The notes under the pieces are model-generated. The model saw only the letters and a program-made list of their open reading frames with translations. It searched no databases and had not been told where the DNA came from. Made by a program: the position numbers and the translations under genes. Shown here in pieces: positions 2,412-39,893 of a stretch of DNA of 64,000 bases. Source of the stretch: Deltaproteobacteria bacterium (GTDB lineage: Bacteria > UBA10199 > JADGCS01); assembly GCA_015228875.1 (NCBI GenBank), contig JADGCS010000003.1, positions 20,473 to 84,472 of the forward strand, written 5' to 3'. Numbering within the stretch: the first letter of the stretch is position 1; each line of letters opens with the position of its first letter.

Positions 2412-2414
2412 ACC

Positions 2415-9148: not shown

Positions 9149-9236
9149 GAACCTTGGAAGGTTTTTTCTACGCGTTTCGGCATCAATTTTTGCATGGTGT
9201 CCGCCCGCGTAGTGTTTTCCGCTTTATGCGAGTTAG
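9149..9236 (-). repeat. R1 repeat, copy 2 (inverted orientation)
   Basis: GAACCTTGGAAGGTTTTTTCTACGCGTTTCGGCATCAATTTTTGCATGGTGTCCGCCCGCGTAGTGTTTTCCGCTTTATGCG = reverse complement of copy 1 (~95% by eye); sits immediately upstream of the HD-GYP regulator start. Confidence 0.85.
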
Positions 9237-9243
9237 GGATCCT

Positions 9244-10191
9244 ATGCAAAAAATTCTACTTATTGAAGACAACGTACTGGTCAGGGCCTTTCTAAAAGAA
9301 CTCCTGCTCAACGAGGGCTATCAGGTATCCATCGCAACTGACATGGCCCTGGGGGTGCAAAAAGCCCAACTCATCGAACCGGATCTTATCCTGGTGGATA
9401 TTTCTCACCCAAAGATAGAAGACAGGGAAATATCACCGGTGCTCCGTCAACACGAAAAAACACACTCCATCCCCATGATCATGATCACAGACCCGGATGA
9501 GGACAATCAACAAATGAGAGAACTCAAATCAAAGGCAGACGAGATTATCATCAGACCCTTTGATGAAAAAGAACTCCTTGCAAAAGTAGCCACCTTCATC
9601 AAAAAGGAAAATGATGATGATGAGATGGAAAACATGACCGATGTACTTTCTGTGCTGATCTCCATTATTGATGCCAGAGACTCCTACACACGAAGACACA
9701 GCAGGAGGGTCAAAAATATCTCCCTGCGCATCGGTGAAAAACTCTCTTTGTCAACACACCAATTGTCCATCTTAAAAAAGGCATCAGAACTGCACGACAT
9801 CGGCAAAATAGGCATCTGCGACTTTGTCCTCAACAAAAAAGGCAGACTGACCAAAGAAGAATTCGAGTCCATCAAAGAACATTCCACGATTGGCGAAAGA
9901 CTCTGCACCCCTTTAAAATCGTTAAGCCCTATCCTGAAAATCATAAGACACCACCATGAACGCTATGATGGGCAGGGATATCCCGATGGGCTTAAAAAAG
10001 AGACCATCCCGCTTGAGGCGAGGATCATTGCTGTTGCCGACAGTTACGATGCCATGTCGTCAGACAGGCCCTATCGGTCAAAATTGTCCACGCAAAAAAT
10101 CAAAAGTGAGTTCCTTGCGGGAAGGGGCTCGCAATGGGATGATAAAATTGTTGATTGTTTCCTCGACATCCTCAACTCTGAGAACCTGTAA
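9244..10191 (+). CDS. response regulator with HD-GYP domain (putative c-di-GMP phosphodiesterase)
   Basis: ATG 9244 preceded by AGGGA; receiver domain (ILLIEDNVLV...LILVDISHP..) then HD-GYP (HDIGKIGI...HHERYDGQGYPDGL). ORF-track start at 9154 is an artefact of the open frame through repeat R1. Confidence 0.8.
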   Translation: MQKILLIEDNVLVRAFLKELLLNEGYQVSIATDMALGVQKAQLIEPDLILVDISHPKIEDREISPVLRQHEKTHSIPMIMITDPDEDNQQMRELKSKADEIIIRPFDEKELLAKVATFIKKENDDDEMENMTDVLSVLISIIDARDSYTRRHSRRVKNISLRIGEKLSLSTHQLSILKKASELHDIGKIGICDFVLNKKGRLTKEEFESIKEHSTIGERLCTPLKSLSPILKIIRHHHERYDGQGYPDGLKKETIPLEARIIAVADSYDAMSSDRPYRSKLSTQKIKSEFLAGRGSQWDDKIVDCFLDILNSENL

Positions 10192-21699: not shown

Positions 21700-21872
21700 T
21701 AAAAACATCGGGCAATCCAATCGGGGATTGTGTTCATGCCCGTGGCTCTTTGGGTATATGCGCGTGTCAGGTTCAGATCGAAATTATCGAGCGCAATGGC
21801 CTCTTTACATTCGCGCGGGCAATCAGCGGTTTTTTGTCTTGTTGCAAACACAGTCAAAATCCCCAACCATCC
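21700..21872 (-). pseudogene. ~170-bp remnant homologous to an internal segment of the STAND Ser/Thr kinase gene (cf. 29170-29340)
   Basis: ~85% nucleotide identity by eye over ~140 nt (GGGATTGYGTT...CAGATCGAAATTATCGAG...CCTCTTTACATTCG...TTTTGTCTTGTTGCAAACACAGTCA) to the NTPase-domain coding region of 27406..30516; lies in the intergenic gap between 21650 and 21980 with no complete ORF. Confidence 0.45.
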
Positions 21873-21979: not shown

Positions 21980-24913
21980 ATGAAGCAAGCCATCATTGCC
22001 ATTATTGTCTGTGTGTTTTTAAGTTTTGGTATTGCCTTTGACTCCCACGCCAAACCCACAAAACCCCTGATCACCTTTCCACCGCGTGGCAGGGTTGCGC
22101 CCGTGCGAGTCCCTTTTAAAAAACCTTGCATGAGCAAGAGTGACTACATGAGGAGGTTCGGCGGTCTCAATAATCTCTTTGGCCGTAATACACTTCGCTA
22201 CAACGACTGCGATGAGGATGGCTTTGATTCTACAAGAGACGGCGGTGGTGATTGCAGTGATTACAATGCCAACGTGCATCCGGGGGCGGTAGAAATTTGC
22301 GACGGGCTTGATAACGATTGCAACGGCACTGCGGACGATGGTCTGCCAACCCACACTTGGTATGCTGATGCAGATAATGACGGCTACGGCGATCCCACCG
22401 CGAGCACGAGCACATGCACGATTGCGGCGCCAGCGGGCTTAGTTGCCAACGCTAACGATTGCGATGATACTAACAATGCAATACATCCGGGTGCAGTTGA
22501 GGTCTGCGACAACGCTGATAACGACTGCACGGGCGGCATTGATAATGGGATTGCGCCTATCCCAGCGGATAACACGCAGGGGCTTTGTGCCTCTAACATA
22601 AAAGTTTGTCATGATGGTGATTTTGTAAATGCAACTGGCAATTATGTTCCTATGTCTGAAATTTGTGATGGGTTGGATAATGACTGTGCTGGCGGCACCG
22701 ATGATGGTTTAACCAATCGCCCTGCAAGCAATACACAGGGCCTGTGCGCGGGTAATACCGAAACCTGTAATGGCATTGATGGCTGGCAGGCCACCGCTAC
22801 CAATTACACACCAACAGCAGAAATCTGTGACGGCCTCGATAACGACTGTGCAGGTGGCATTGACAATGGCCTTGCCGACCGCCTCACCTCTAATCAAGAT
22901 GGTGAGTGCGAGGGTAATCTTGAACATTGCGAGGCTGTAGAGGGTTATCAACCCTTGGCAACCAATTATATTCCAACAGATGAAATCTGCGACAACAAAG
23001 ACAACAACTGCAACGACGCTGTTGATGAAGGTATTTCCAATATTCCCGCCCTTAACACGCAAGGGCTTTGTTCGGCCAATATCAGGGTTTGCAGTAGTGG
23101 TACGTTTGTTGATTTGGCTGCAAATTATATTCCAACCACCGAGATTTGCGATGGGCTAGATAACGACTGCGCCGGCGGCATTGATGACGGGCTTACCGAT
23201 CTCCCTGCAACCAATACAAACGGCGAGTGTGTGGGCAACAAGCTACAATGCAATGGTGTTGCTGGCTGGCAGGCAAAGGCAACAAACTACATACCGACCG
23301 ATGAGACCTGCGACACACTCGATAACAACTGCAACGGTACAGTAGACGAGGGTTTGACAATCTACACATGGTACACCGATGCAGATGGCGATGGGCACGG
23401 CAATCCCGAAATCTCTGAAACCAATTGCCATGCAACTTTTGCGTCCCATGTTTCTAATGCAGACGACTGCAACGATGCTGACTCCACTATTAACCCTAGC
23501 GTTGCCGAAGACACCACCCGCATTGGTGATGAAAATTGTGATGGCAAAGGCATAGGCAATCTAAGTGCCGCTGATGCTGTGTTTGAGGGGGATACGGCGA
23601 GTGATTATACGGGTTTCTCAATGGCCAATGTGGGGGATATGGATGGTGATAACGTGCCGGATATTTTGGTGGGGGCGCCGAGTTGGGATGCTAGTCTAGA
23701 ACCTTTGGGCACTGGTGAAGCAGTATTGCTTAGAGGTAATACAGAAAATTTTTTAAGTTTGGGAACCGAACTGTATCATGCGGGCGTGCACACTGGCGAT
23801 TCTGCTGGCTCCAGTGTTGCTAGTGCTGGTGATATGAATGACGATGGGGTGCCTGATATTATTATTGGAGCCACCACTGTTGATGGTGAAGGATTAGACA
23901 CTGGTGCTGCCTATTTAATCTATGGGCCTTATAATGAATCGGTTTCTTTGTCAGAAGCAGATTTTGTTTTAACTGGCATCGCTCAATATGACACTATTGG
24001 ATTTACGTTGGGATCTGCTGGTGATTATAATTGTGATGGATATGATGATCTCTTTATTGGTGGGGCATACAATAATAACGGTGGCACCAATGCCGGTGAA
24101 GCCTATGTGATCTATGGTCCTTTAGATACGGGGACAATGAGTATGACCTCTGCTGATGTCACCATAAGAGCAACAGAAGCTTGGAGTCTATTTGGCGACT
24201 CGGGTATGGCTACCGACCTTGATCGCGATGGTTGCTCTGATCTCATTATCAGCGCTCCTATGGCAGGTTCGACCGATAGAGGTAAGGTCTATATTTTTAA
24301 AGGGAGTGAAACCCCTGCAAGTCTGATAACAACTGCAACCGCTGATGTTATATTTACGGGCGGCACGGATGGCGAAGAAGCTGGTGGTGCAATTGCGATT
24401 AAAAAAAATGGCGACTTGACCGGTGACGGAAACATCGATCTTGTCATTGGTGCAAGATATAACGCCTGCGGTGGCACAGACAGCGGCGCCGTTTATATTG
24501 TATCCGACCCTTTGACCAGCAAGACACTCTCCACATTAGAGTCAGCCTTTATCTGCGGGGATGGCACGGGTGATCAACTTGGTGACTACAGCAGTTCCCT
24601 CGACATCGGAGACCTTGACGGCGACAGGGTTTATGATCTGCTGATTGGGGATGAGAGTAATGGCACATACTACGGCGCGGCTACTTTTTTATTTATGGGA
24701 CCCGTAAATGGAATCCACGACGCCTCTGATGCCAACTTCATTTTTGAAGGGCAATCCGACGTGGGCTATGCCTCAGGTAGGTCTGCAATCTTTATCGACG
24801 ATCTAAACAGTGACGGTTTTTTAGAAATTGGAATTGGTGATCCAAACTATAGCAATCCAGAAGTCAAAGCTGGCGCCGCTTATATTATTAATGGTAGTCG
24901 GCTCTTTAATTAA
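21980..24913 (+). CDS. large secreted protein with ~9 tandem Cys-rich 'putative metal-binding motif' (MopE-like, CDGxDNDCxG) repeats and C-terminal FG-GAP/integrin-alpha repeats
   Basis: Signal peptide MKQAIIAIIVCVFLSFGIAFDSHA; repeats EICDGLDNDCAGGIDDGL…; FG-GAP units DMDGDNVPDILVGAP, DMNDDGVPDIIIGA, DYNCDGYDDLFIGG, DLDRDGCSDLIISAP. Confidence 0.75.
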   Translation: MKQAIIAIIVCVFLSFGIAFDSHAKPTKPLITFPPRGRVAPVRVPFKKPCMSKSDYMRRFGGLNNLFGRNTLRYNDCDEDGFDSTRDGGGDCSDYNANVHPGAVEICDGLDNDCNGTADDGLPTHTWYADADNDGYGDPTASTSTCTIAAPAGLVANANDCDDTNNAIHPGAVEVCDNADNDCTGGIDNGIAPIPADNTQGLCASNIKVCHDGDFVNATGNYVPMSEICDGLDNDCAGGTDDGLTNRPASNTQGLCAGNTETCNGIDGWQATATNYTPTAEICDGLDNDCAGGIDNGLADRLTSNQDGECEGNLEHCEAVEGYQPLATNYIPTDEICDNKDNNCNDAVDEGISNIPALNTQGLCSANIRVCSSGTFVDLAANYIPTTEICDGLDNDCAGGIDDGLTDLPATNTNGECVGNKLQCNGVAGWQAKATNYIPTDETCDTLDNNCNGTVDEGLTIYTWYTDADGDGHGNPEISETNCHATFASHVSNADDCNDADSTINPSVAEDTTRIGDENCDGKGIGNLSAADAVFEGDTASDYTGFSMANVGDMDGDNVPDILVGAPSWDASLEPLGTGEAVLLRGNTENFLSLGTELYHAGVHTGDSAGSSVASAGDMNDDGVPDIIIGATTVDGEGLDTGAAYLIYGPYNESVSLSEADFVLTGIAQYDTIGFTLGSAGDYNCDGYDDLFIGGAYNNNGGTNAGEAYVIYGPLDTGTMSMTSADVTIRATEAWSLFGDSGMATDLDRDGCSDLIISAPMAGSTDRGKVYIFKGSETPASLITTATADVIFTGGTDGEEAGGAIAIKKNGDLTGDGNIDLVIGARYNACGGTDSGAVYIVSDPLTSKTLSTLESAFICGDGTGDQLGDYSSSLDIGDLDGDRVYDLLIGDESNGTYYGAATFLFMGPVNGIHDASDANFIFEGQSDVGYASGRSAIFIDDLNSDGFLEIGIGDPNYSNPEVKAGAAYIINGSRLFN

Positions 24914-25398: not shown

Positions 25399-27177
25399 TT
25401 ACTCATACTCACCCACATCTATTAGTAATAGTGATTTGTTAGTTACGTCAGTCACAATCAGTTGCTTGTCTTTTAACAACAAGCTGTTTGCCGAAAAACT
25501 GACGGTTTTGTTTGGCACTGAATCGGCAAGCTTGATTACAGTGCCTACGACGGGTTTTGCAATCGGGAGACCGTTTTCTTCCATAAGCGAAATAACGGAC
25601 ACGGTTTGATCATCATGATTTAACACATAAAGTTTACCACTTGTTCTGCTAAAAGTCATTGCCTGCGGGTCTTTGCCAACCATGACCACATTAGCTTCAT
25701 CTATTGTTTTTATGCCTGTTTCTAAATTAAAATTGCCAAGCCAGACTTTGTTATTTTTATCTAAAAGGGCAAAATCTACAATTTTGCTGTCGTCATCATA
25801 ATATGCAATCATATCTATTAACTGCACTTGATTATTATCTTTCCATATTTCACCACCAAGACGGTCCTCATCAGTTCTTCCAAATTCTTTGATGGCCTTT
25901 ATCCTTATGTTATTCTCATCATTAAAGACAACCAGGGTCCATTTCCAACCGCCAACATCTGCGTCCCCAAACCCCAACGTCCTCGTATGCCTGATCTCAT
26001 TGCCTTGGGTGTCGGTGTCGCCTGCGCGGGTGATCCAGATTATTTGGTGTTTCTCCCTTTTCCACTTCTCCTCAGTCACCGCGAAATTCAAATACCCCTC
26101 CGCCGCACTCTCCTGCTCAATCCCATAATACAAAATCCCATTCATCGCCCGCAAAAACGTGTACGCCTTGGCGTTGGGGTCGGTTACTTTTTCGCCGCTG
26201 TCTAGCACAATGCCGGCCTCGTAGTTGAGCAGTTGCACGCCTTCGGTGCCCATTACACCCAGGAGGGCGTCGGAGTCTGCATACGCAAGCTCGGTGCCTT
26301 CTGCATCAAATGTTTTGTAGCCAAGGTTGTAGTCGCCGGCAACCCGCATACCACTGCCATCATCGCGAGCTACAACACCATTGCCGTTTGCAAGTGAGTA
26401 CAATTCATCACCCGCCGAGTTTACATCAGTCGGCGTATTGCCAACATAGAGGAGGTTTTTTTTCGGGGTATCTTCTACAACCTGATCCGTCGCAGGTGCG
26501 CAGTCTTTATCCACGATGGTGTAGTAAAGTTTTTCGGTAGAGACCCCCTGATTGACAAAACACTTAAAGGAACCGTCTGTGTCGATGGGGCAGTAGGTAA
26601 ATTCATCGGAGCAGGTGGTTGCAACCTCTTGAGCATGGGCTTCTTTGATGAGCCAGCCGGACCAAGGGGATTGCCGCGTCGCTTTGCTCCTCGCAATGAC
26701 GGACGGCCGCTCTTTGCAGGCAACATCTGGAATAATCTCCTCAACACTCACCGCAATTTGATCGCCTGCTTCAAAATCGGTCACCGCACCCGCTGTGGCC
26801 GTGATCGGTACGTTACCTTGAGCATCCGGCGCAAATGTCAAAAAATTGCCTGAATCTAGCGACGGGTTAATAATACTCCCCGTGGGCAAGCTGCCCGGAT
26901 CCTCGAAATAATTGTTGTCGGGAGGGGTTATTCCTTCACCTTGGGCATCGGTGGCTTTTGACGACTGCGTTGTCCCAATCTCATCTACACTCGTGTCGGA
27001 CGTATCCATTGATGATGACGATGTTGACGGAGAATTTGATCCACCATTAGTATCATTCAAGAAAACAGAGCTGCCCACACCTTTTGAACAGGACGTTGCT
27101 ATAAATAGGGCAAAAAGATTTAACAAAATTTGGCGAACAATGGCATTCATCTCAAATAAACTGTACGCAAATCTCAT
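25399..27177 (-). CDS. secreted lipoprotein, unknown function (possible start at internal ATG 27150)
   Basis: MNAIVRQILLNLFALFIATSC signal/lipobox-like; Ser/Thr-rich linker then large domain; 592 aa. Confidence 0.55.
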   Translation of the reverse strand: MRFAYSLFEMNAIVRQILLNLFALFIATSCSKGVGSSVFLNDTNGGSNSPSTSSSSMDTSDTSVDEIGTTQSSKATDAQGEGITPPDNNYFEDPGSLPTGSIINPSLDSGNFLTFAPDAQGNVPITATAGAVTDFEAGDQIAVSVEEIIPDVACKERPSVIARSKATRQSPWSGWLIKEAHAQEVATTCSDEFTYCPIDTDGSFKCFVNQGVSTEKLYYTIVDKDCAPATDQVVEDTPKKNLLYVGNTPTDVNSAGDELYSLANGNGVVARDDGSGMRVAGDYNLGYKTFDAEGTELAYADSDALLGVMGTEGVQLLNYEAGIVLDSGEKVTDPNAKAYTFLRAMNGILYYGIEQESAAEGYLNFAVTEEKWKREKHQIIWITRAGDTDTQGNEIRHTRTLGFGDADVGGWKWTLVVFNDENNIRIKAIKEFGRTDEDRLGGEIWKDNNQVQLIDMIAYYDDDSKIVDFALLDKNNKVWLGNFNLETGIKTIDEANVVMVGKDPQAMTFSRTSGKLYVLNHDDQTVSVISLMEENGLPIAKPVVGTVIKLADSVPNKTVSFSANSLLLKDKQLIVTDVTNKSLLLIDVGEYE

Positions 27178-27333: not shown

Positions 27334-27431
27334 GGGCACCTCTAAAAACTCAATTGGAGTCTCCAGATGTCATTCCCGCCCGCGCAAGCGGGGGCAGGGG
27401 TGACACTACGGAAGATTTTTTAGAGGTGCCC
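27334..27431 (-). terminator. candidate rho-independent terminator: perfect 15-bp inverted repeat GGGCACCTCTAAAAA / TTTTTAGAGGTGCCC enclosing the kinase stop codon, followed on the minus strand by U8
   Basis: Arms at 27334-27348 and 27417-27431; 68-nt spacer contains an inner GC hairpin (CCCGC…GCGGG); minus-strand downstream sequence AUUAAUGUUUUUUUUCAC. Confidence 0.4.
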
Positions 27432-30400
27432 TATAATTTGACTCATCAAAGTCTGGATCTAATTTTAACCTTTCAATTTCCTTCTCAACCTCGTGCGCTT
27501 TGTCCATCTGTTTTTTTATTTTATAGCTCTCTGCCTTTTGAGTCAGCAAACGGAGACGGTATTGTTTTAAGCTATCATGGGCGGATAAAATTTCTGCTGC
27601 CTGCCCCAGGTGCCAATCCCCCTCAATATGCTCACCTTTATGCAGGCAAGCCATGGCCATTGTAAGATGCGCACTGAAGAGGCAATACACCTTCTGATTG
27701 ACGTTAATAAAATCATTTTTTTTTATACAATCCAAAACAAATCCGGCATGCTTTTGAGCTCCATCAAAATCACCTTTTTTGAAACACAGTGTTGCCATGT
27801 TACCTGCAATAATGAACAGATTAACGCCCGCGTGAGATTTTTTGGCAAGATCAAGCGCATGTTTGTAGTACTTAACAGCTTCATCGTAATGATCTTCTGC
27901 ATCTTCTATATTGCCAAGTTCGTTATACACCGCATAAAGCCACTTGGGCGTTCTGTTTTGTTTTATCAGGTCAAGCGTTTGCAAAAGCAGTCTTTTGCCT
28001 TTAACAGGCTCACCGCTCCTCAAATACGCAACTCCCAACTTCATGATCGTGCGAGGGTAATAATCCAAGTGGGGGGTTTTTGAAACAACCGCCAATTGTT
28101 CTTCGAGATACGCTATAGCCTCTTTGTGTTTTCCACCGTAGTGAAATATCATATCGCTGTCGTTTCTCTTGATGGCCTCGATTTTTTCGTCATCATCAAG
28201 TTCATTGTGCCAGATCTTCCAGGTGGATTGCGCAATATCTTGAGCCCGATTAATATTGCCTGATTCGAGTTCTCGCATCGCCTCCCAGTTTTTTATACTG
28301 ACCCAAAGCGCCTTGTGGCTCCGCAAACCATGACACAGTTTTTTTGCCTGTTCAAAACATTCAGTTGATTTGTGGGCTGTGCCCTTGCGGTTAAAGCAGA
28401 GGCCAAGCAGATACAGTGCCCTAGTTTTAAACACAATATCAGTTGTCTGAGCTTCAAGCTTTGCAAACCACTCGACAGCGGAATCATAGTCGGCATCATC
28501 AAGAAATAATTCACCCAACATCAATAGCGCCTCGTCTCTCACAGAGGCCTTAATGCCATCCCTGCATAAAATATCAGCGAGGTTCTCCTTTGCTTGATCA
28601 AACTCAAGTTCTTCGTAGTTCTTTTTTGCAAGTTCCAACAGAAATAGAAATGCCTGCGGTCCCGTCCCCCTGCCTCTAAAGAACAAAATCTGATCCTTAC
28701 TTGCGCCTTTTTTTTCAAAGTACTCAGCCAGCCTTTCGCAGTATGCAGACTTTTCATCACATGCAATCCTGCTCATAATGATTTTTGCGAAGTTTGAATT
28801 TAAAAAGGTGATTCTATTACCTGATAATGGTTTGAATATTTTATGTTCTGTAAAATAGACCAGGTCTTCATTCAAGCGAAGGTTGCCTGTAATCTTTATC
28901 AGATCATCAATAGACAACATGTTTTCGGACAGCGCCATGTAATTTAAAGTATCTCTTTGCACATCGCTGAGATGAAGGGATTCGATGACCGCCAAAAAAC
29001 GATTCTGTATAAAACCACTCACCCCGTATTTTTTTATTTCTACTCCCAGATCATCCAATATTTTTTCTGACCACCTCCCCTGCGCGTCCCTGAAAAAACC
29101 TGCATCAAAGAGTGTCTTGATATATTCCGCCAGGAACAACGGATTCCCCTGTGTCTGTTCGAAGACGGTGTTCACAATCCAATCAGGGATTGCGTTAATT
29201 CCCGTAGCCTTTTGGATATATGTGCGCGTCAGGTCCAGATCGAAATTATCGAGTGCAATAACCTCTTTACATTCGTGCGGGTAATCATCCGGCTTTTGTC
29301 TTGTTGCAAACACAGTCAGGACAGGCTCCCGTTTGTAACAAAATGTGGCGTAAATGAGTTCATCACGGTCAATGGTGTTATTGTCGGCAAGTATCAAACA
29401 GGGGCTGGGCGCTTGGCCCTCGGGGTATTTGTCAAACTCTTCGAGTGTCAGTACAGACACAAAAAATTTCTGTGCCTCATGTTTGCATTCCTGCAAAAAA
29501 CGGGTTTTTCCGGTCCCTTCATTCCCGCTTATGATGAGATACGGTTCTTTGCTGTAAGTTTTGTTTCTGATTCGATCTTCAAAATAAAGTTTAAATTTTT
29601 CAAACTCGTCTTCTCGTCCAATCATCTCGCCCTGTTCCGGTAGATAACTCATGATAGTTTGCTTGGTCTCAACAGGATAATTCTTGAACGTCAGAATGTT
29701 GATCTCTTCGATGACATCTGATGCTTTTGAATAACGGTCTTTCGGGTCCTTGCTTAATAACTTAAGTATAATTTTATCGAGATATTCCGGCACAGCATGG
29801 TTAAGTGATGAAGGTGCCAAGGGTGACTGCAAAAGATGTTTTTGATGTATTTCCTCAGGATAATGCCCCCTAAAAGGCTGCGTGCCAGCAAGAACCTTGA
29901 AGAAAGAGCAGGCCAGCGAATAAAGATCGGCCCTGCCATCAAAAGACTCACCCTTGATGATTTCGGGGGCAGTAAAGGGCGCAGTTCCGATGATCGCCGC
30001 TAGTCCCTCATTGCTCTGAGCCCTTGTCGCCGTTGCCCTGGAATGGGCAAAACCAAAATCAATGATTTTAACAAGGGGACCGCCCCCATCATCTGTGGTC
30101 ACAAGAATATTTTGCGGTTTAATGTCAAGATGGCAAATACCGTGCTGATGAAGGTAATTAAGGGCCCGCAACGATTGTATAAGCAGTTCTTCGACAAACT
30201 CAACTGGCTTATCCACGGCCGCATAAAACAAGTCTTTGCCGTCCACATATTCTGTCACAATGTAGAGTCTGTCCGTTTCGTCATCAAAGCCTGTATCATA
30301 AACACGAGCAATGTAGGGATGATTGAGATTTTTGAGAACATCAAACTCTTCCTTGAAAGCATGGCGAGTAGCAGCCTTGCCACTCGTGCGTGATTTTCTT

Positions 30401-30516
30401 AAAAACTTGACGGCACAGTTTTGTCCGGTTTTACTGTCTTTGGCAAGCACGACCTCACCAGTCACCCCCCTTCCAAGGTACCTGATTTGCTGGTAGCGTT
30501 CTGAAAATCGGGGCAT
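27406..30516 (-). CDS. STAND-type signalling protein: N-terminal Ser/Thr protein kinase + AAA/NTPase domain + C-terminal TPR repeats
   Basis: Kinase subdomains (GRGVTGEVVLAKD…AVKFL; HRD-like ICHLDIKPQNIL; DFGFA; APE-like TAPFTAPE); P-loop ISGNEGTGKTRFL and Walker-B-like CLILAD; extensive TPR region; start ATG with GAGGGA RBS 8 nt after stop of upstream XRE gene. Confidence 0.8.
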   Translation of the reverse strand: MPRFSERYQQIRYLGRGVTGEVVLAKDSKTGQNCAVKFLRKSRTSGKAATRHAFKEEFDVLKNLNHPYIARVYDTGFDDETDRLYIVTEYVDGKDLFYAAVDKPVEFVEELLIQSLRALNYLHQHGICHLDIKPQNILVTTDDGGGPLVKIIDFGFAHSRATATRAQSNEGLAAIIGTAPFTAPEIIKGESFDGRADLYSLACSFFKVLAGTQPFRGHYPEEIHQKHLLQSPLAPSSLNHAVPEYLDKIILKLLSKDPKDRYSKASDVIEEINILTFKNYPVETKQTIMSYLPEQGEMIGREDEFEKFKLYFEDRIRNKTYSKEPYLIISGNEGTGKTRFLQECKHEAQKFFVSVLTLEEFDKYPEGQAPSPCLILADNNTIDRDELIYATFCYKREPVLTVFATRQKPDDYPHECKEVIALDNFDLDLTRTYIQKATGINAIPDWIVNTVFEQTQGNPLFLAEYIKTLFDAGFFRDAQGRWSEKILDDLGVEIKKYGVSGFIQNRFLAVIESLHLSDVQRDTLNYMALSENMLSIDDLIKITGNLRLNEDLVYFTEHKIFKPLSGNRITFLNSNFAKIIMSRIACDEKSAYCERLAEYFEKKGASKDQILFFRGRGTGPQAFLFLLELAKKNYEELEFDQAKENLADILCRDGIKASVRDEALLMLGELFLDDADYDSAVEWFAKLEAQTTDIVFKTRALYLLGLCFNRKGTAHKSTECFEQAKKLCHGLRSHKALWVSIKNWEAMRELESGNINRAQDIAQSTWKIWHNELDDDEKIEAIKRNDSDMIFHYGGKHKEAIAYLEEQLAVVSKTPHLDYYPRTIMKLGVAYLRSGEPVKGKRLLLQTLDLIKQNRTPKWLYAVYNELGNIEDAEDHYDEAVKYYKHALDLAKKSHAGVNLFIIAGNMATLCFKKGDFDGAQKHAGFVLDCIKKNDFINVNQKVYCLFSAHLTMAMACLHKGEHIEGDWHLGQAAEILSAHDSLKQYRLRLLTQKAESYKIKKQMDKAHEVEKEIERLKLDPDFDESNYRAPLKNLP

Positions 30517-30524
30517 GTGATCCC

Positions 30525-32225
30525 TCAGAAAAGTTGTTTAAGACGCTTTGTAACCTCGTCTGCCGAAAGGTCAAATTTATCAGCCAAAGAATCAAGATTG
30601 TTGTCCGAGATTCTCTGATAGGCCACCTGTATGTTGCCCATTCTTTTTTCGTAATCGTCCAAAGACTCCTTGCGGCGTTTCATGAGCATCTCGGTGATAA
30701 ATGATACAAACATCTGGTAGCATTCATTGATCAACGCATGCTGATACTCGGGGTCGAACCTGAATTCACTGCGTTTGGGCTGTTTGACGAGCATAACGGA
30801 ACCGAGTCCGTGAATTCTGTGATTGTCCCTGAAAGTTTTAATGCGTCTTGAGGTAATGGTCGAAACCTGTTGGCTTCGCTTCTCGATCATGTTTGAACTG
30901 ATCTCGACAAGATGCTCTCTGAGACGATTGAGTTCATTTACCACTTTAAATAATGATTCGGGCCTCATCGGGATCTGTGGGTATTGTTGCAGCATCTCCT
31001 CGATCGCGTCAATTTTCATGACAGGAAAATCACAGTCCACAAAATAATTAACAAGTTTAAGCGTGGCATTGAGTGGCGTGATCTCTTTGCGACGGGGTTG
31101 GTATTTCTCATCAAGGAGAGGTTCGTGATGATCAATAAGACATCTGACGACTGCATCGGGACAGTTCCAGTTGGCCGCAATCATCCCGCTAACAACCGGA
31201 TGCAGGTGATAGTGCATCATGTCATTGATTGAGAGCAAGAGATCAGAAAAAGACTCATCTTTGAAGTCAACATTTTCTTCGAGAAGTGAGGGACTCAGCA
31301 TCGAACAAAAGGCCTGTACACTGGCCGATTGCGCTAAAACACAGGTGTACAGATGATCAAAGTTAACGGTATCTGGCAGATAGGGCTTAAGCCTTTGAGT
31401 CATTAAACCTGCCAAACTAGAAAACTCATTAAACTGCTGTAAAAAGACAAGATCTTCACTGTAGTTGTAAATGCCGCATGGGTGCGATGCCACAAGCAAC
31501 AGTGTTTTAAACTGTTCAATGGTAAGCCGGTTAAAACAATCCAAAATATTCAACGATGGGGCGTCATAAAAAAAGATGGTGTTGGCAGCGTACGTGATAA
31601 AGGGTCCAAAATAAGGATCCCTAGCCACATAGCCGGCAAAACTTTCGCCGTCGACTACATAATCCTGTATTTCGTAAAGATAACCATCCTTGCCCTTGTA
31701 TTCAGCAAGCGTGCTTAAGATCATAAACAACGGCATGGGCATAATAGGCAGCCTGTAAAGACGAGAAACAGACTTGTGCATGTTGGCAAGTGCGGTTACA
31801 ATTTTGGGATCAAGTTTTGTTGTAAACCTTTCGTCATACGCCTTTTTAAGCTTTTCCACAGCCAGTTCCCAGTCCGCGGCGTATTTTAAGGCGCCGTCTT
31901 CTGCGGGTTTGTCCTCGAATTTTTTACCGGCCTGATGCATGGCATAGGCCCGCCACTGCAAGAGTTTCTCAAGCGGGATTTCAAGTATTTTTGCAAGACT
32001 GATCATGGCAACTTTTTCTGGTATGAGTTCGCCGCATTCGTACCTCATGTAATCGCGGCGAGACATGCCCAGAGCCTCGGCCAGATCACCGCTGCGAATC
32101 CCCTTTTTTTCACGAACACGCATGAGCCGTGATCCAAAGTGCAGGTATTTAAGTGTGGTGCGCAGGGCCATTTTATCAATATTGCCCTCTCCGCTGATGT
32201 AAGAGGTGGTCTGATTGTCTGCCAT
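30525..32225 (-). CDS. XRE-family HTH protein with large uncharacterised C-terminal domain (566 aa)
   Basis: N-terminal HTH_XRE (LMRVREKKGIRSGDLAEALGMSRRDYMRYECGELIPEKVAMISLAKILEIPLEKL); remaining ~450 aa no recognised motif; translationally coupled to kinase. Confidence 0.65.
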   Translation of the reverse strand: MADNQTTSYISGEGNIDKMALRTTLKYLHFGSRLMRVREKKGIRSGDLAEALGMSRRDYMRYECGELIPEKVAMISLAKILEIPLEKLLQWRAYAMHQAGKKFEDKPAEDGALKYAADWELAVEKLKKAYDERFTTKLDPKIVTALANMHKSVSRLYRLPIMPMPLFMILSTLAEYKGKDGYLYEIQDYVVDGESFAGYVARDPYFGPFITYAANTIFFYDAPSLNILDCFNRLTIEQFKTLLLVASHPCGIYNYSEDLVFLQQFNEFSSLAGLMTQRLKPYLPDTVNFDHLYTCVLAQSASVQAFCSMLSPSLLEENVDFKDESFSDLLLSINDMMHYHLHPVVSGMIAANWNCPDAVVRCLIDHHEPLLDEKYQPRRKEITPLNATLKLVNYFVDCDFPVMKIDAIEEMLQQYPQIPMRPESLFKVVNELNRLREHLVEISSNMIEKRSQQVSTITSRRIKTFRDNHRIHGLGSVMLVKQPKRSEFRFDPEYQHALINECYQMFVSFITEMLMKRRKESLDDYEKRMGNIQVAYQRISDNNLDSLADKFDLSADEVTKRLKQLF

Positions 32226-32239
32226 AAATGATCCTTTCG

Positions 32240-32866
32240 TTATGGTGCCATTAACGACCACACCTTGTGTAAAAAAAACAGCGATTTTTTATTAAAGACC
32301 TGAGCCCCAAATGCCGTGTTAAGCGCTGTAAGCACAATGATGTTGTTGTCAAACTGCACACGCCTGAAGATAAGTGTTTTGCCCGTGTCAGCAACCACAA
32401 GATCATGATTATCAACAGGTGTAGAAGGGGTTACAACAAGTCGCCAGCCTTCACCGATGGGGTCCATGGCCCTGTCTTTGACAACGACCGCATAACAACA
32501 GGGATCATCCGGCCGTGACGTGTTACTGAGATAATCCAGAGGTTTTCCCTTAAAAAGACCCGCCTTGTCAAACTTGAGGGGACCATGCAGTCGCTTGGTG
32601 TTGACAAGACCTATCACGGGGACACCGGTGACAGCACCCGGTTTTTCACCTTCCTGTGCTGCCATGGCAAAGAGAAAGGAAAGATCAGTCCCCAGTGCCT
32701 CTGCGACCCGCTCCATCGTGGCCATGCCGACATTGTCTGCGATGTCGTTGTCCTGCTCGATGCAATTCATATAACTTAAACTGATAGCGGCATTACGTGC
32801 TAAATCCCCCTGCGAAAGTCCCTTACGACGCCTGATTTCTCTTATAATTTTTCCCAGTTTAATCAT
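32240..32866 (-). CDS. CI/LexA-like repressor: XRE HTH + S24-peptidase-like C-terminal domain with Ser->Ala at the nucleophile position
   Basis: MIKLGKIIREIRRRKGLSQGDLARNAAISLSYMNCIEQ HTH; C-terminal VVKDRAMDPIGEGWRLVV…VVADTGKTLIFRRV resembles LexA/CI S24 fold but GDSM motif is DRAM. Confidence 0.6.
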   Translation of the reverse strand: MIKLGKIIREIRRRKGLSQGDLARNAAISLSYMNCIEQDNDIADNVGMATMERVAEALGTDLSFLFAMAAQEGEKPGAVTGVPVIGLVNTKRLHGPLKFDKAGLFKGKPLDYLSNTSRPDDPCCYAVVVKDRAMDPIGEGWRLVVTPSTPVDNHDLVVADTGKTLIFRRVQFDNNIIVLTALNTAFGAQVFNKKSLFFLHKVWSLMAP

Positions 32867-33061
32867 TTGATTGGCCTTTGTGCCTGTAAACCATATCACA
32901 ATCAAAACAACCATCAACAATAAAATTGTAATATATTATAAAAAAACTTAGCAACTTTTATTTTAATATAGTCGAAAATAATTGCAAGAGTAATGTTAAT
33001 CATTATGATATAGTTAATATGTGTCCCACGAATAATGCGAAGGACCAAAGGAGTATTCATC

Positions 33062-33775
33062 ATGACAACAAACAACACATGCGACAATCCACTGAAAATC
33101 ATGAATATTGTAAGACAGGCGGCCCATGACATCAGGAGTCCCCTTGAAGCATTAACCATCATCATAAAGTGTTGCGAAAAAAAATTAAACAGGGATGAGA
33201 TGGCCATCATCGTCAGCGCGATGGACAGGATTAAGATAATTGCCAATGACATCCTTGAAGATCACCGTCATAAAAAAAACAACCTCAACTTGAAACACGT
33301 ATCGATTACCGATGTTGCAAAAACTGTTGAAGATATTGTTGCCGAAAAAAAGATGCAATACATGGAAACACCTCAGATACACATCCTTGCGGATACGTAT
33401 GCCGCCCAGTGTAAAAGTATGCGGCATAGAGGAATCAAGGTCGACTTGGATACCTTTGCCAGAACACTCTCCAACATCATTAACAACGCCATTGAGGCTG
33501 TCGAGGGCGATGGACGTGTGTTGATCACGTTCCATACACAAGGAAACCACGCCCTCCTTTGTGTTGCGGATAATGGCAAAGGTATTGACCCCAGTATCTT
33601 GCCCCTGCTGATGCAAGAAGGTGCTACATTTAAAAAAGACCACGGAAATGGGCTTGGGCTGTATCATGCCCGCCAGGCCGTCACATCGTGGGGAGGACTC
33701 ATAAAAATCGAGTCAAACGCGGGCAGGGGCACCGTTGTGCACATGCAAATTCCCACAATCGCAAGGTGTTGGTGA
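33062..33775 (+). CDS. cytoplasmic sensor histidine kinase (HisKA + HATPase_c), no cognate response regulator adjacent
   Basis: ATG 33062 with AAAGGAG RBS; H-box AAHDIRSPLEAL; N/G boxes IINNAIEAV, DNGKGID, GNGLGL; divergent from CI-like gene across ~195-bp AT-rich region with palindromes (ATCATTATGAT; TTGTAATATATTATAA). Confidence 0.75.
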   Translation: MTTNNTCDNPLKIMNIVRQAAHDIRSPLEALTIIIKCCEKKLNRDEMAIIVSAMDRIKIIANDILEDHRHKKNNLNLKHVSITDVAKTVEDIVAEKKMQYMETPQIHILADTYAAQCKSMRHRGIKVDLDTFARTLSNIINNAIEAVEGDGRVLITFHTQGNHALLCVADNGKGIDPSILPLLMQEGATFKKDHGNGLGLYHARQAVTSWGGLIKIESNAGRGTVVHMQIPTIARCW

Positions 33776-34117
33776 CAAGCATGATCCTGTTTGCTTGCAA
33801 CAGTCGCCGTGTTAAACATCGCAGGCAAATTTTTCCGGCTTTTCTCTATCCTGTATATTCCCTTGAGAAAAAATGGTCGCCCTTGACCCGCCGCTTATTG
33901 TCGCGCCGATCGGGTGCCTTGCAACAAGTTGTTTTGTGGCTTGTTTATCAGCAATGCGCCCCATGATTATTTTTTTTAAATTCTGGAATATTCTTTGCTG
34001 CTTCAATGGTGTAATATAGTGGATCGGGGGGCAGATCGAGGGGGATGCAGTATTTGACACCGCTTAACATCGTATGACTGCTTACAACATGGGGTGATAT
34101 TTAAAAAAGGGGGGCGC

Positions 34118-36166
34118 ATGAACTTTCATATCATCACACAATCGCGCATCATCGTCTGTCTCTGTGTTTTATTTTTACTGCCCTGCCTTACGCACTGCGG
34201 CTCAAATTCTGCGATATCCACCTCCACATCAACCACATCTACATTCAGTCTGACGGGACAGGTCACCATGCCTTCGTCAGTATCCACAAGTGTGAGTTAT
34301 CTCACAAAAGCCATACCCTCTTTGATCACAGAGGCCGCTGCGCCAGCTGCCCTCTGTTACATCTACAACAACACCAATCCACCCGCTGACGGCAGTTACA
34401 TTGCAGAGGTTATGACCGGCAGTGACGGCACGTATTCTGCCGCCGTTGATATCAGCGATGTCAATGCCGGCGACACACTGTGCGTTGTCTGCGACGACGT
34501 AGGGATAAGCGGCTGTTTCGAACTGCCAACCGACCTGGGAACAGGTACAGCATCTCTTGGCACCGCCAACTTTACAACCACGCTTGTTGTGGAACAACTC
34601 AGAGACAGGCTCGGCTCAATCAACTGGGGGAGCCTTGATTTGGACGGGGCAGAGGCCGACTTTAACGTGGTGTGCTTTTTGAGACTGGCGGCCGAGCAGT
34701 GGGAAAATGCGGCCACACAGGGAGACTCCTATATCGAGGCCAATATGGGTTTGCTCGAGGAGCAGATGGCAGAGGCCCTGGTCAATTATCACAATGGAGA
34801 GGCCGGCACATATGCATCACCGGCCGACATGTATCAGGACATGTTCGATAATGACAGCACTTATAATATTGTGACCGGTGTTTTAGAGGATTACTATGCC
34901 GGCACACCGGGGACTGATGCTCCCGCCAGCCTTATTAAGACCGTAGAAACAACGGCCGCTGATGGCAGTTTCTGCGGCGAGATTCTTGCTGACGAGACCT
35001 ACCTCGACACCGCCATGGATGTGTTGATGCAGGCAGGCAGCATTGAGGAATTCACACAAACATACGCCAACGCCTCTGCTGTTGAATTTTTGGTAGAAAC
35101 GTTCGCGCAATATGAGGGTGATGATGGTTATGTCGATTTTGACAACGCCGGCTATGGATGGCACACTGATGCCTTTGCAGGCATGATGCAGGGGCTGGGC
35201 GGTTCCTATTCCGGTGCCTCGCCACAGATCATTATTACCCTCATGGGAAGCCTGCCCGCTGCGGATAATGCCAACTTTGACTGGGACAACTACGGCAGGG
35301 GCTATATCGCCACCTTTATGGATTACAGGGAGGAAGGCGGCGCCCCAAGCGCCGAAGAACTGGAGCAGATTGCTGGATACATTGCCTATCAGACCGAGGC
35401 CGGTATTATTTTTGACCCCACAACAGATGCGTACGCTAATTATGCGTGGCGTGATGAGTTTGAAAATGCCTACGATAATGGCACCAACGACTTTAACACC
35501 TGTGTCGATGATCCGGCATTATGTTATCAGACCTACTCAAACACCTATGTCACCGACACTTTTACTCAGTCAACAGCCACAACATGTGTTGTGGACGGCA
35601 CTTGCGCGGCAACCGAAGACGTTTACATCTGTCCCGCTGACTGCGCCCCAACCAACACAGTGGTTACAGCTGTGTGCGGGGACAATTATTGCGATATCAC
35701 CACGGGGGAACGGTATACCTGTCCCGCAGACTGCATAACCAGCACTTGCGGCAATGCGGTTTGCGATACCAGCGAGACAACGGCCAGTTGTCCTGTGGAC
35801 TGCCCGCTGATAAACACACCGGGAACAATAAGCAAACCAGATCTTTCCGGTCTTTATTATTGGGGGTCATCGGTTCTCGCACCCTGCAGAGATAAACTTG
35901 GCGGCGGGGTTTCTGTCTCGCTGATGTCCCGAAATACGGAGAATTCGGCATACAATGTGTTGAATGCGGGAACTGCATTGGGTTACATCACAATTAATTC
36001 TGTCGATAACAGTTCCGTAGACACAATTTACTGGTGCGCCTTTACCGGCATAGGTTCTGTGAACAACGGCTATTACTGCGAGATGCGCGGCTCAGGTACC
36101 TATAATCTGTACCCCACCGTTGTCATAGGGATAGATGAGTGTCTTAACACCGCAATCAAGTATTGA
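34118..36166 (+). CDS. secreted Cys-rich protein, unknown function
   Basis: Signal peptide MNFHIITQSRIIVCLCVLFLLPCLTHCGS; C-terminal repeated CPADC…CGDNYCD / CPADC…CGNAVCD…CPVDC motifs. Confidence 0.55.
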   Translation: MNFHIITQSRIIVCLCVLFLLPCLTHCGSNSAISTSTSTTSTFSLTGQVTMPSSVSTSVSYLTKAIPSLITEAAAPAALCYIYNNTNPPADGSYIAEVMTGSDGTYSAAVDISDVNAGDTLCVVCDDVGISGCFELPTDLGTGTASLGTANFTTTLVVEQLRDRLGSINWGSLDLDGAEADFNVVCFLRLAAEQWENAATQGDSYIEANMGLLEEQMAEALVNYHNGEAGTYASPADMYQDMFDNDSTYNIVTGVLEDYYAGTPGTDAPASLIKTVETTAADGSFCGEILADETYLDTAMDVLMQAGSIEEFTQTYANASAVEFLVETFAQYEGDDGYVDFDNAGYGWHTDAFAGMMQGLGGSYSGASPQIIITLMGSLPAADNANFDWDNYGRGYIATFMDYREEGGAPSAEELEQIAGYIAYQTEAGIIFDPTTDAYANYAWRDEFENAYDNGTNDFNTCVDDPALCYQTYSNTYVTDTFTQSTATTCVVDGTCAATEDVYICPADCAPTNTVVTAVCGDNYCDITTGERYTCPADCITSTCGNAVCDTSETTASCPVDCPLINTPGTISKPDLSGLYYWGSSVLAPCRDKLGGGVSVSLMSRNTENSAYNVLNAGTALGYITINSVDNSSVDTIYWCAFTGIGSVNNGYYCEMRGSGTYNLYPTVVIGIDECLNTAIKY

Positions 36167-38135: not shown

Positions 38136-39893
38136 ATGGCTGAATTACCTCCTGTGGGTTGTTACTACACAACCAATGCACCTGGCTTTGAAGGCAAGAA
38201 AAAACTGGTGTGTGACCAAAGTGGTGAGGGAACACTTAAGACCGACGGGCCCACACAAGAACCAGATGGCGCGCAACATGCCGCAAACACCGATATGACC
38301 CAGCGATCAGATGACCCCTTCAGGTTTTCGCCGGGTGTGGATATTGACTACAATACCTTTTGCGAGGGGGTTGCGTTTATCAGAGACATGAGACTCTTTA
38401 ACGGCGTTGCACAGGGGATGGGTATGGGCATGGAGGCCGTTGCCCAGATTGACGACTTTATTATGGAAGACATGGCCCACACCCTGTTTTTTGATCCCGC
38501 GATGGAGGCCATGGGGGTTGAGCCTTTAGAAGAGGGGAGCGTTGAAAAAATGACCTTTGATTGGGGGGTGAGGACTGCCAATGCCGTAGGGATTTTTGCA
38601 ATGTACCACCGTTTTATAGGCCCCGGTAAGGCGTTTCCAACATGGGCGCAATTTAAAAGTGCGGCGGCCAAATACATGCCCTTTATTGGGATGATGTATC
38701 TCATGGAAACCAAACTTGTCAGTTCGCCCGATGCCGTGCTCAACGCGGTAGGACTGGACGGGCTTGAGGGGTGGCAACATGATGCGGCCTACTGGGGGAT
38801 TTTAGGCACAGGCACAGCGGGGGCCCTGGCCTATATCAATCACGAATATGTTAAACCAGTTTCTGAGGGTGGTAAAACCCTCTCCGCAAAATCTGGTGTG
38901 GCCTGGATTTCGTTTTGGCTCGCCTACTCCCTCTATTGGAGAATCATGACAGATCAGGGTAGGGCGTTGCAGTCTGTTGATGGGCAGGATGTATCGGGGC
39001 TTAATCCCCTGGATTGGGAGTGGGACTATGTTAATCCAGATACGGCGGCATCGGGCTATTGGTCATGGGCTGTTGCAGCACCTGCGTGGGGGGTTTTGGG
39101 AGCAGTGTCGAGATTTTTAACAGACTTTGAATCAAGGGTACTAAATCTGATAACAAGGGGCAAGGTTGGTGGAGGAGACTTTAACAGTCTCATGCAACTT
39201 TCGGGGGCAGAAACGGTAGCCATTGACGCCGCCGCCCCGGAGATTCTTGGTAGAAAACTCAAGTTTGCCTCGGGCGCCTTTGCCAAGGCGGCCGCAAAAC
39301 CCAGCCGTGTGGCCTACTCGCTTACGATGTTTGCAAATGGTCTTATTGCCGGCATGTTTGCAGGCAATGCCATGCAACAGGTTCGTGATTACAAAGACCC
39401 TTCAACGCTACATGGTTCGTCGGTAAGAACCGTGTTTACGGGCGGCGCAAATGTTCCGCTCACACATTCTCTTAAAATTCTGGGTTCGGATGTCAGTCAT
39501 TATCAGTATTATCTGGCAGGGATGCTCTTTTTATACCCCTATGAGTCCTGTAACGAAATTAAAGAGAGTCTCAGTACCATTGCGAGATATCAGGCCCACA
39601 AATTCAAGGCGAGTGTTGATCCTGTCGAAAAAAGGGAGATCGCGGGTTTGATTTATAAGCTGGGTCTGGCATCACTGCCAGGCACCTGGGACGGCAAAGA
39701 GTACAAGCACGGTGAACGTGACGAGATTATCAAATCTGTCAGTCAAGATCCAAAACTCTGGACTGAGGTTAATGATATTGCCGATTCTGTCGAAGAGGCC
39801 CTGATGGCCAGGGGGGTTGTAGTAGAGGAGATTGATCTTGATGAGTTTAGGGCCGTGATTGAAGATGCTATCAAATTGGAGAGTGGTTCATAA
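38136..39893 (+). CDS. hypothetical protein (585 aa), Trp/Gly/Ala-rich amphipathic segments, no signal peptide
   Basis: ATG 38136; coding-like ORF; no recognised domain. Confidence 0.55.
   Translation: MAELPPVGCYYTTNAPGFEGKKKLVCDQSGEGTLKTDGPTQEPDGAQHAANTDMTQRSDDPFRFSPGVDIDYNTFCEGVAFIRDMRLFNGVAQGMGMGMEAVAQIDDFIMEDMAHTLFFDPAMEAMGVEPLEEGSVEKMTFDWGVRTANAVGIFAMYHRFIGPGKAFPTWAQFKSAAAKYMPFIGMMYLMETKLVSSPDAVLNAVGLDGLEGWQHDAAYWGILGTGTAGALAYINHEYVKPVSEGGKTLSAKSGVAWISFWLAYSLYWRIMTDQGRALQSVDGQDVSGLNPLDWEWDYVNPDTAASGYWSWAVAAPAWGVLGAVSRFLTDFESRVLNLITRGKVGGGDFNSLMQLSGAETVAIDAAAPEILGRKLKFASGAFAKAAAKPSRVAYSLTMFANGLIAGMFAGNAMQQVRDYKDPSTLHGSSVRTVFTGGANVPLTHSLKILGSDVSHYQYYLAGMLFLYPYESCNEIKESLSTIARYQAHKFKASVDPVEKREIAGLIYKLGLASLPGTWDGKEYKHGERDEIIKSVSQDPKLWTEVNDIADSVEEALMARGVVVEEIDLDEFRAVIEDAIKLESGS

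Follow-up and report, generated by a model that had tools for sequence, protein, structure and literature searches.

In a 64,000-nucleotide window (the whole stretch of DNA analysed here; positions 20,473 to 84,472 of contig JADGCS010000003.1, assembly GCA_015228875.1, a Deltaproteobacteria metagenome-assembled genome), two tightly coupled genes encode an XRE-type helix-turn-helix (HTH) regulator with an HDOD domain and a protein that fuses a Ser/Thr kinase to a STAND NTPase and a TPR arm, and this pair is the conserved unit of the locus. It was found in 11 distinct loci including the window; gene order and strand never vary, the gaps measure 2-49 nt and the flanking genes are otherwise unrelated. 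The original prediction, made from the letters of the window alone, had drawn the unit as a trio of a CI-like repressor, the XRE protein and the kinase, with a divergent orphan histidine kinase beside it, and had proposed it as a candidate undescribed signalling or defence system. Across the loci the XRE-kinase part of the trio is kept, and the CI-like gene is restricted to the window and one related lineage; the conserved unit is the regulator-kinase pair, not the trio plus histidine kinase.

In the window (all coordinates below are window positions unless a locus is named), three minus-strand genes run head to tail from the HTH-S24 gene (32240-32866, 208 aa; MBF0103925.1, named "LexA family" by NCBI) through the XRE-HTH/HDOD regulator (30525-32225, 566 aa from its ATG; MBF0103924.1) to the Ser/Thr kinase-STAND NTPase-TPR protein (27406-30516, 1036 aa), at intergenic distances of 14 and 8 nt. 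The junction between the first two genes reads TAA cgaaaggatcattt ATG (14 nt, with the ribosome-binding site AAAGGA), and that between the regulator and the kinase reads TGA gggatcac ATG (8 nt, with a GAGGGA ribosome-binding site that overlaps the stop codon). With such gaps and a ribosome-binding site in or next to each, the tight operon that had been predicted holds. The list of open reading frames offers a GTG start for the XRE protein that would give 578 aa, and the NCBI call is 566 aa; the calls of all three operon genes agree with the NCBI annotation (MBF0103923-25). Transmembrane segments were absent from all three operon proteins by hydropathy.

The pairing was recovered from both sides. 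On the regulator side, relatives 33-50% identical to the window protein are directly followed by a kinase-STAND-TPR gene in L001, L005, L006/L013, L007 and L019 (L-numbers are our labels for the loci of relatives). On the kinase side, a single-sequence search with the STAND-TPR part returned the query plus two STAND proteins at 20-21% identity, and kinase relatives were therefore retrieved with a profile of the STAND-TPR part alone, which yielded kinases with 29-36% identity. All five kinase relatives of at least 29% identity that were looked up have an XRE-HDOD gene directly upstream (L021, L022, L023, L024 and L027), and two distant kinases (24-26% identity) have no regulator upstream. Kinase homologues occurring mostly without an XRE partner had been named as the observation that would undo the proposed system; among the close relatives looked up, five of five were paired. 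All members come from metagenomes, many of them on short contigs, and the context analysis covered part of the regulator family (clusters other than P0007-P0039). These data support the view that the kinase and the large XRE protein are truly linked in function, and that the link is conserved.

Regulators without an adjacent kinase were found at L008-L012, L017, L018 and L020, in Nitrospirales genomes and a few other contigs (absence of the kinase was checked with Pfam for L010 and judged from the size and position of open reading frames at the other unpaired loci). Their setting consists of Memo, a tRNA-U5-methyltransferase-like gene, a TPR protein of ~215 aa, the XRE-HDOD gene, TatD, deformylase and PriA. 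It is worth noting that the small TPR protein upstream of the unpaired regulators might stand in for the TPR arm of the kinase as a partner. In a neighbour-joining tree of 44 members, paired proteins are spread over the whole tree, and pairing looks ancestral because the unpaired regulators form one tight subclade nested among the paired ones.

The pair did not appear in PADLOC, NCBIfam, PHROGs or Pfam architecture notes, and searches of the literature on HDOD, on HDOD with helix-turn-helix and on STAND kinase-TPR proteins in anti-phage systems gave no description of an HTH-HDOD regulator coupled to a STAND kinase, nor any paper on an HTH-HDOD architecture as such. As far as these searches show, neither a curated family nor a paper exists for the pair, and the word "undescribed" can stand. 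Kinase-STAND-TPR proteins and kinase-regulator pairs are known kinds; what appears to be new is the obligate coupling of an HTH-HDOD protein to a STAND kinase.

Domain architecture of the kinase and the regulator

By its motifs, the N-terminal part of the 1036-aa protein (residues 1-280) is a Hanks-type Ser/Thr kinase domain. Pfam Pkinase matched at E = 1.9e-50, and a motif scan placed the glycine-rich loop, the lysine, the catalytic loop and the two downstream motifs in order (GRGVTGEV15, AVK37, HLDIKPQN129 with HLD at 129-131, DFG153 and APE183). Lys37, the catalytic loop, DFG and APE are invariant in an alignment of five partner kinases, and the kinase is predicted to be active. It is of the non-RD type because every partner has HLD or HFD at the catalytic loop. 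Matches to the HipA family were absent in Pfam, NCBIfam and PADLOC, the window kinase being matched by Pfam Pkinase.

Between the kinase domain and the TPR arm (residues ~586-1036) lies a NOD module, with a Walker A motif GNEGTGKT at 331 and a Walker B motif LILAD378. Partners show no variation in Walker A or in the Asp of Walker B, whereas the residue after that Asp is Asn in the window protein (LILADN) and the relatives read GDD. Pfam matches to AAA_16 and TPR_MalT were weak, below the curated cut-offs, and TPR repeats were also matched. An AlphaFold2 (AF2) model of residues 285-1036 (pLDDT 86.4) resolves into a P-loop core of five strands, a helical domain, a winged helix that carries a beta-hairpin and an extended TPR solenoid; the closest Foldseek match to it in the PDB is the STAND-TPR protein PH0952 (6mfv_A; E = 6.7e-13 over 729 columns), and CED-4 was matched as well (E = 4.9e-6). 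Judged on this model the region is a STAND NTPase, and the reading of kinase, P-loop NTPase and TPR as STAND architecture is borne out by the motifs together with the structural match to PH0952. A PDB search with the STAND-TPR sequence profile gave only TPR matches plus weak PH0952; NCBIfam gave only generic kinase-domain matches, and neither NCBIfam nor PHROGs holds a family for the STAND part. Identity falls along the protein from 51% in the kinase domain through 41% in the NOD module to 31% in the TPR arm, and the sensor arm evolves fastest.

The 566-aa regulator has an HTH domain near its N-terminus (residues ~29-90), from which a helical linker leads to a degenerate HDOD domain (~150-400) and on to an all-helical C-terminal domain (~400-566). 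In Pfam the window protein matched HTH_31/HTH_3, with a weak HDOD match (E = 0.0024; 17.8 bits against a cut-off of 22.9), and HDOD (PF08668) was matched by 21 of 35 family members (best E = 9.7e-15). An AF2 model built from the 35 family members (pLDDT 86.9, pTM 0.77) is all-helical, and its best Foldseek match is the HDOD structure 3m1t, with 3i7a and SadB (9qzk) matched too. The region is an HDOD domain by both family matches and structure. In the structure matches the N-terminus resembles the HTH domains of controller-protein, P22 c2 and SinR type, and a PDB sequence search with the family profile gave HTH matches only. The protein had been described as a large HTH protein of unknown function; the HTH part of that description was right, and the part left unassigned contains the HDOD domain. 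A common metabolic sensor domain in the C-terminal part had been named as a finding that would tell against the proposal, and what that part carries is an HDOD signalling domain.

Where the HD dyad would be expected, the family has LxQGxG (Q-G in place of the dyad), and the sole nearly invariant His among the 35 members is H342. The metal-binding His/Asp cluster of the HD superfamily, as in 3HC1, was not found across the 35 regulators, the comparison being made against the descriptions of 3HC1 and SadB in PMC12075610. Because the dyad is replaced and one His alone is nearly invariant, the HDOD domain of the regulator is probably non-catalytic; the HDOD domain of SadB is a non-enzymatic adaptor (PMC12075610). 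The C-terminal ~170 residues are conserved and helical; in the family consensus they include ExSS, which hardly varies, and RFxPEYQ, which is conserved, and no fold match for residues ~400-566 was found by Foldseek with the full-length regulator model. The family is small (in a set of 1.84 billion proteins it has ~39 full-length members once clustered at 50% identity), the regulator is without an NCBIfam or PHROG family, and its profile found zero relatives in 2.9 million viral contigs.

Genes accompanying the pair

The first gene of the operon encodes a protein of LexA/CI-type architecture, as judged from its sequence matches (Pfam HTH_31/HTH_3 plus Peptidase_S24 at E = 3e-9; a phrog_4 repressor aligned to residues 3-204 of 208), and a PDB sequence search with it returned HTH matches only. 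In alignment with E. coli LexA and UmuD, Ala stands at the position of the catalytic Ser (DRAMDP) and Arg at that of the catalytic Lys (IFRRV), and the S24 dyad appears to be lost; the L006 relative keeps the Ser and has Arg at the Lys position as well. The protein is probably a CI-like repressor that is unable to self-cleave, since Ser and Lys of the dyad both appear replaced, and the architecture of the CI/LexA-like regulator first proposed is confirmed. Homologues of this gene upstream of the pair are limited to the window and its nearest relative (L006/L013/L014), at 27-30% identity. Candidates for an orthologous third component elsewhere were rejected: in L005, L019 and L021 the small HTH genes that precede the pair have generic XRE similarity only, the 73-aa open reading frame in the corresponding place in L024 gave no match to an HTH, and the remaining paired loci have no small HTH gene upstream. 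Confined to the window and one related lineage, with its dyad apparently lost and with unrelated HTH genes or none in its place elsewhere, the CI-like gene is not the core member that it was taken for; it is a lineage-specific first gene of the operon.

On the plus strand, a small soluble histidine kinase (33062-33775, 237 aa; MBF0103926.1) diverges from the operon. It matched Pfam HATPase_c (6e-19) and weakly HisKA, its H-box reads HDIRSPL, and it consists of the DHp-CA core alone, lacking a sensor and any transmembrane segment, under the NCBI name "HAMP domain-containing". The open reading frame has two in-frame ATG codons, at 33035 and 33062; the second has AAAGGAG 8 nt upstream and agrees with NCBI, and 33062 is the most likely start. 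A response regulator was not found next to the histidine kinase, the nearest being an RR-HD-GYP gene 23 kb off at 9154-10191 (REC plus HD_5, of HD-GYP type), which is also the only receiver-domain gene among the open reading frames scanned. By tblastn, no homologue of the histidine kinase occurs in any of 27 related loci. It is an orphan, as had been proposed, in having no adjacent response regulator, and is not a conserved part of the module; we regard it as an unrelated neighbour.

The divergent intergenic spacer between the operon and the histidine-kinase gene (32867-33061, 195 bp) presumably holds the promoters of both. It is AT-rich as described (28% GC), and the palindromic operator-like sites attributed to it come down to imperfect repeats that do not rise above chance. 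These are an imperfect 32-nt inverted repeat (32918-32949 / 32953-32984, 72% complementary) and a single near-palindrome of 9 nt; perfect palindromes with half-sites of at least 6 nt are absent from the spacer, and promoter-like hexamers on both of its strands (18, against a shuffle expectation of 12.5 +/- 4.7) are not in excess.

Downstream of the kinase, on the same strand and 228 nt away, lies a gene for a 592-aa lipoprotein (p592; 25399-27177, minus strand; lipobox ...IATSC, no Pfam match). Homologues of p592 that adjoin the kinase were found at BLAST level in L001 (6830-8779), L007 (1-1194) and L027 (4971-6152); by hhalign a p592-family gene also occurs in L022 (10198-11973; probability 98.3%) and in L025 (7868-9730; probability 93%), where it adjoins a distant kinase without XRE-HDOD. 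With the window this makes six loci in which a p592-family gene stands beside the kinase, and among the six loci with downstream sequence (window, L001, L021, L022, L023 and L027) four carry one. A 424-aa gene in L023 was considered as a further member, and the test was negative. Members of the family have ~590 aa, a conserved Cys-containing N-terminal half and a YVTN-like "YVLN..D..VSVI" stretch near the C-terminus, which is suspected to be beta-propeller-like. Convergent with p592 is the gene of a 977-aa secreted protein (p977; 21980-24913, plus strand) with MopE Cys-rich and FG-GAP repeats (Pfam). A syntenic homologue in L001 is 34% identical over 968 aa (tblastn), and p977-like proteins follow the kinase in L021. 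At DNA level p977 contains at least four Cys-rich MopE-type repeats at ~160-nt spacing (22494, 22815, 22977 and 23136).

On the far side of p592 and p977 from the kinase gene, intergenic between a glutathionylspermidine-synthase gene and p977, there is a kinase-gene relic (21713-21856, minus strand), 144 nt long and 86% identical to 29175-29318. It copies kinase residues 399-447 without gaps and is probably the leftover of a second or earlier kinase copy; in all probability it marks a past rearrangement or insertion of the 21.7-33 kb block. The GC content of the module is below that of its surroundings (0.43-0.45 against 0.48). In the flanks of the window the genes are of an ordinary chromosomal kind (Mfd, glutamate-synthase-like oxidoreductases, glutathionylspermidine synthase, saccharopine dehydrogenase, SerRS and NeuB).

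A signalling role for the pair and its alternatives

We tentatively favour a dedicated signalling role, to which we give somewhat less than an even chance of being correct: the STAND kinase would sense a ligand and control its own HTH-HDOD transcription factor. The two cytoplasmic proteins, translated together, would make up a Ser/Thr-kinase cassette that is self-contained and moves horizontally. In its favour are the pairing recovered from both sides, the short gaps, the domain layout with its intact kinase and Walker motifs, the want of transmembrane segments in both proteins, the recurring lipoprotein neighbour and the precedents of PknK and PknG discussed below. The ligand, the regulon, the transfer of phosphate to the regulator and the role in the cell are our inferences, drawn as follows. 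The fast-evolving TPR arm would bind the ligand, probably a protein or peptide, and nucleotide-dependent oligomerisation of the NOD module would gather the non-RD kinase domains and lead to their activation. The kinase would then phosphorylate or bind the XRE-HTH/HDOD factor encoded immediately upstream, which might contact DNA through its N-terminal HTH and offer the degenerate HDOD and the C-terminal helical domain as a receiver or interaction surface, with conserved S443/S444, T235, S270 and S346 as candidate sites of phosphorylation. The output may be altered repression at the cassette promoter, and probably also of the p592-family lipoprotein gene and the adhesin-like genes that adjoin it, with the non-cleavable CI-like HTH-S24 repressor possibly added as a second layer of control in the window genome. 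Envelope signalling accounts for the exported lipoprotein that recurs beside the kinase no less well than defence does.

Several points weigh against this role. Phosphorylation of the regulator and contact between kinase and regulator are predictions, and one regulator subclade occurs without an adjacent kinase. Distances of regulator and kinase did not correlate significantly in a mirror-tree test over nine loci (r = 0.22, Mantel P = 0.24), a test that is uninformative because the distances are saturated and star-like. Co-transcription of the kinase with p592 is uncertain because the 228 nt between them also hold a GC-rich hairpin. A shared operator motif was not found between the operon promoter and the regions upstream of p592 and p977: when the spacers between the CI-like and histidine-kinase genes, between the kinase and p592 and between the histidine kinase and p690 were compared with each other and with the stretch upstream of p977, nothing exceeded shuffle controls. 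Finally, the gene settings of some relatives (AbiE, ArdA with a coupling protein, a methyltransferase, integrase/RecT) would also fit a conflict system.

Such a role in conflict or defence is the main alternative, though we hold it doubtful. The pair would then be an Avs-like kinase receptor whose TPR arm sees a phage or mobile-element protein and whose kinase phosphorylates many host proteins and stops growth, like Stk2 or PD-T4-6, with the XRE-HDOD protein acting as operon repressor and HipB-like neutraliser of the kinase. The order of effector, NOD and TPR and the identity gradient along the protein do resemble immune STANDs, and the order of an XRE-HTH gene followed by a kinase gene mirrors hipB-hipA. 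Protein kinases have been reported as effectors fused to defence TPR sensors (PMC12803255). Mobile or defence genes neighbour the pair in about five loci: AbiEi/AbiEii stand directly upstream of it in L005; L022 has a TraG/TrwB coupling protein and ArdA as well as an M23 peptidase, the pair lying after the conjugation genes and ArdA and before the p592-family lipoprotein; a tyrosine integrase, a PD-(D/E)XK exonuclease, RecT and a divergent cI/cro-like HTH pair lie upstream in L019 (2368-8177); L024 has a type II methyltransferase; and L001 has TrbC-like, DUF4258 and PIN genes. The distribution is patchy and confined to metagenome-assembled genomes, and the lower GC and the relic gene fragment point in the same direction. 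However, such neighbours are not seen in the window, L021, L023 and L027; neither defence genes nor an integrase, att-like repeat or transfer gene were found in the 64-kb window, the flanks of which are ordinary. PADLOC gave kinase-domain matches (PD-T4-6, mad6) and generic HTH models and no system-level match, viral contigs held zero relatives, one regulator clade sits in a housekeeping neighbourhood, and neither an exported lipoprotein partner nor a 560-aa HDOD regulator is a feature of any known Avs system.

A further possibility, which we consider unlikely, is a new three-component mobile system in which the NLR-like kinase would detect an invader or a cue from a neighbouring cell and, by phosphorylating the HTH-HDOD protein, switch on p592 for exclusion, adhesion or kin recognition; the output of the STAND protein would then be transcriptional, not cell death. 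Rather improbable is a switch of a mobile element, where the pair would run the life cycle of an integrative/conjugative element or prophage (induction, transfer, or surface or entry exclusion via the lipoprotein) and the chromosomal copies would be remnants. The position of the pair right after the integrase-exonuclease-RecT-cI/cro block in L019, and between conjugation genes with ArdA and the p592-family lipoprotein in L022, would suit such a switch, as would the phage-CI-like first gene of the window operon (phrog_4) and the past insertion to which the relic and the lower GC point. It is opposed by the missing integrase, att-like repeat and transfer gene in the window, by the want of element hallmarks in L021, L023 and L027, by the zero relatives in viral contigs and by an S24 domain that is probably unable to self-cleave, which makes classical SOS-type induction unlikely. 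That there is no dedicated link at all, and a pleiotropic TPR kinase and an independent XRE regulator are in mere synteny, is highly improbable: kinase-plus-TPR proteins are described as very common in deltaproteobacteria-like genomes in a passage of PMC11032199 that cites Perez 2008, one clade has the regulator without the kinase and the mirror-tree test was not significant, but adjacency is kept in 11 loci down to 24-30% identity and at a spacing of 2-49 nt, and shared neighbourhood ancestry fails as an explanation because this adjacency persists amid wholly different flanking genes.

Comparison with known systems

PknK of Mycobacterium tuberculosis is a soluble Hanks kinase with a large MalT-like C-terminal regulatory region. 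According to a statement in PMC9045387, citing Kumar et al. 2009, PknK phosphorylates the transcription regulator VirS. The pair described here is alike in combining a cytoplasmic Ser/Thr kinase that carries a large AAA_16/MalT-type region with a DNA-binding regulator as its proposed client. It differs in that the regulator is an XRE-HTH/HDOD protein whereas VirS is of AraC type, in that the genes are translationally coupled and co-inherited in 11 loci, and in that the kinase is non-RD. Sequence-level orthology to PknK was neither tested nor found. In HipBA, hipB encodes an XRE-HTH antitoxin and repressor of ~90 aa and is followed by the gene for the Ser/Thr kinase toxin HipA, which is not of Hanks type and has no STAND or TPR part. 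Both systems have an XRE-HTH gene tightly coupled to a kinase gene behind it, and in both the HTH protein is likely to be an autorepressor, but the regulator here has 566 aa with an HDOD domain, and homology beyond the generic HTH was not seen.

Avs proteins and PH0952 share with the kinase the layout of N-terminal effector, NBD-HD-WHD and TPR sensor, the sensor being the fastest-evolving part here. Unlike Avs, the effector is a Hanks kinase and not a nuclease, SIR2, TIR or protease, an obligate HTH-HDOD partner is encoded upstream, and PADLOC has no system model for it. Other HDOD proteins (REC-HDOD and SadB of Pseudomonas) resemble the regulator in their Pfam HDOD match and, in the case of SadB, in degenerate metal-binding residues; in contrast to them, the regulator has an N-terminal XRE HTH, an extra C-terminal helical domain and a Ser/Thr kinase for a partner where they have a two-component receiver. 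In the PknG system, GlnH, GlnX and PknG are encoded together. PknG, a TPR kinase, receives its signal from extracellular GlnH via the membrane protein GlnX, as outlined where PMC11032199 summarises Lisa et al. 2021. There too an exported protein is tied genetically to a soluble Hanks kinase with a TPR part, but no gene for a membrane transducer was seen here, p592 is not a solute-binding protein, and PknG is without a STAND module and without a dedicated HTH partner.

Most Hanks kinases of bacteria act pleiotropically, which goes with the difficulty of finding their cognate targets, and a co-inherited pair such as this one offers a clean and testable candidate for a kinase and its substrate. 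The pair would give the poorly understood HDOD domain a defined partner, and would be an example of a STAND/NLR-type receptor whose output could lie in gene regulation and not in cell death; should the role in defence prove right instead, a kinase-effector STAND with an unusual regulator would join the anti-phage repertoire. The pair is known from the genes of uncultured bacteria alone, with about ten loci besides the window.

Elsewhere in the window there are large open reading frames without a Pfam match at E <= 1e-4 (585, 564, 473, 662 and 1144 aa; 38136-39893, 39976-41670, 990-4403 and 5500-8934), and further lipoproteins or secreted proteins without a Pfam match are encoded at 34094-36166 and 42398-44587.

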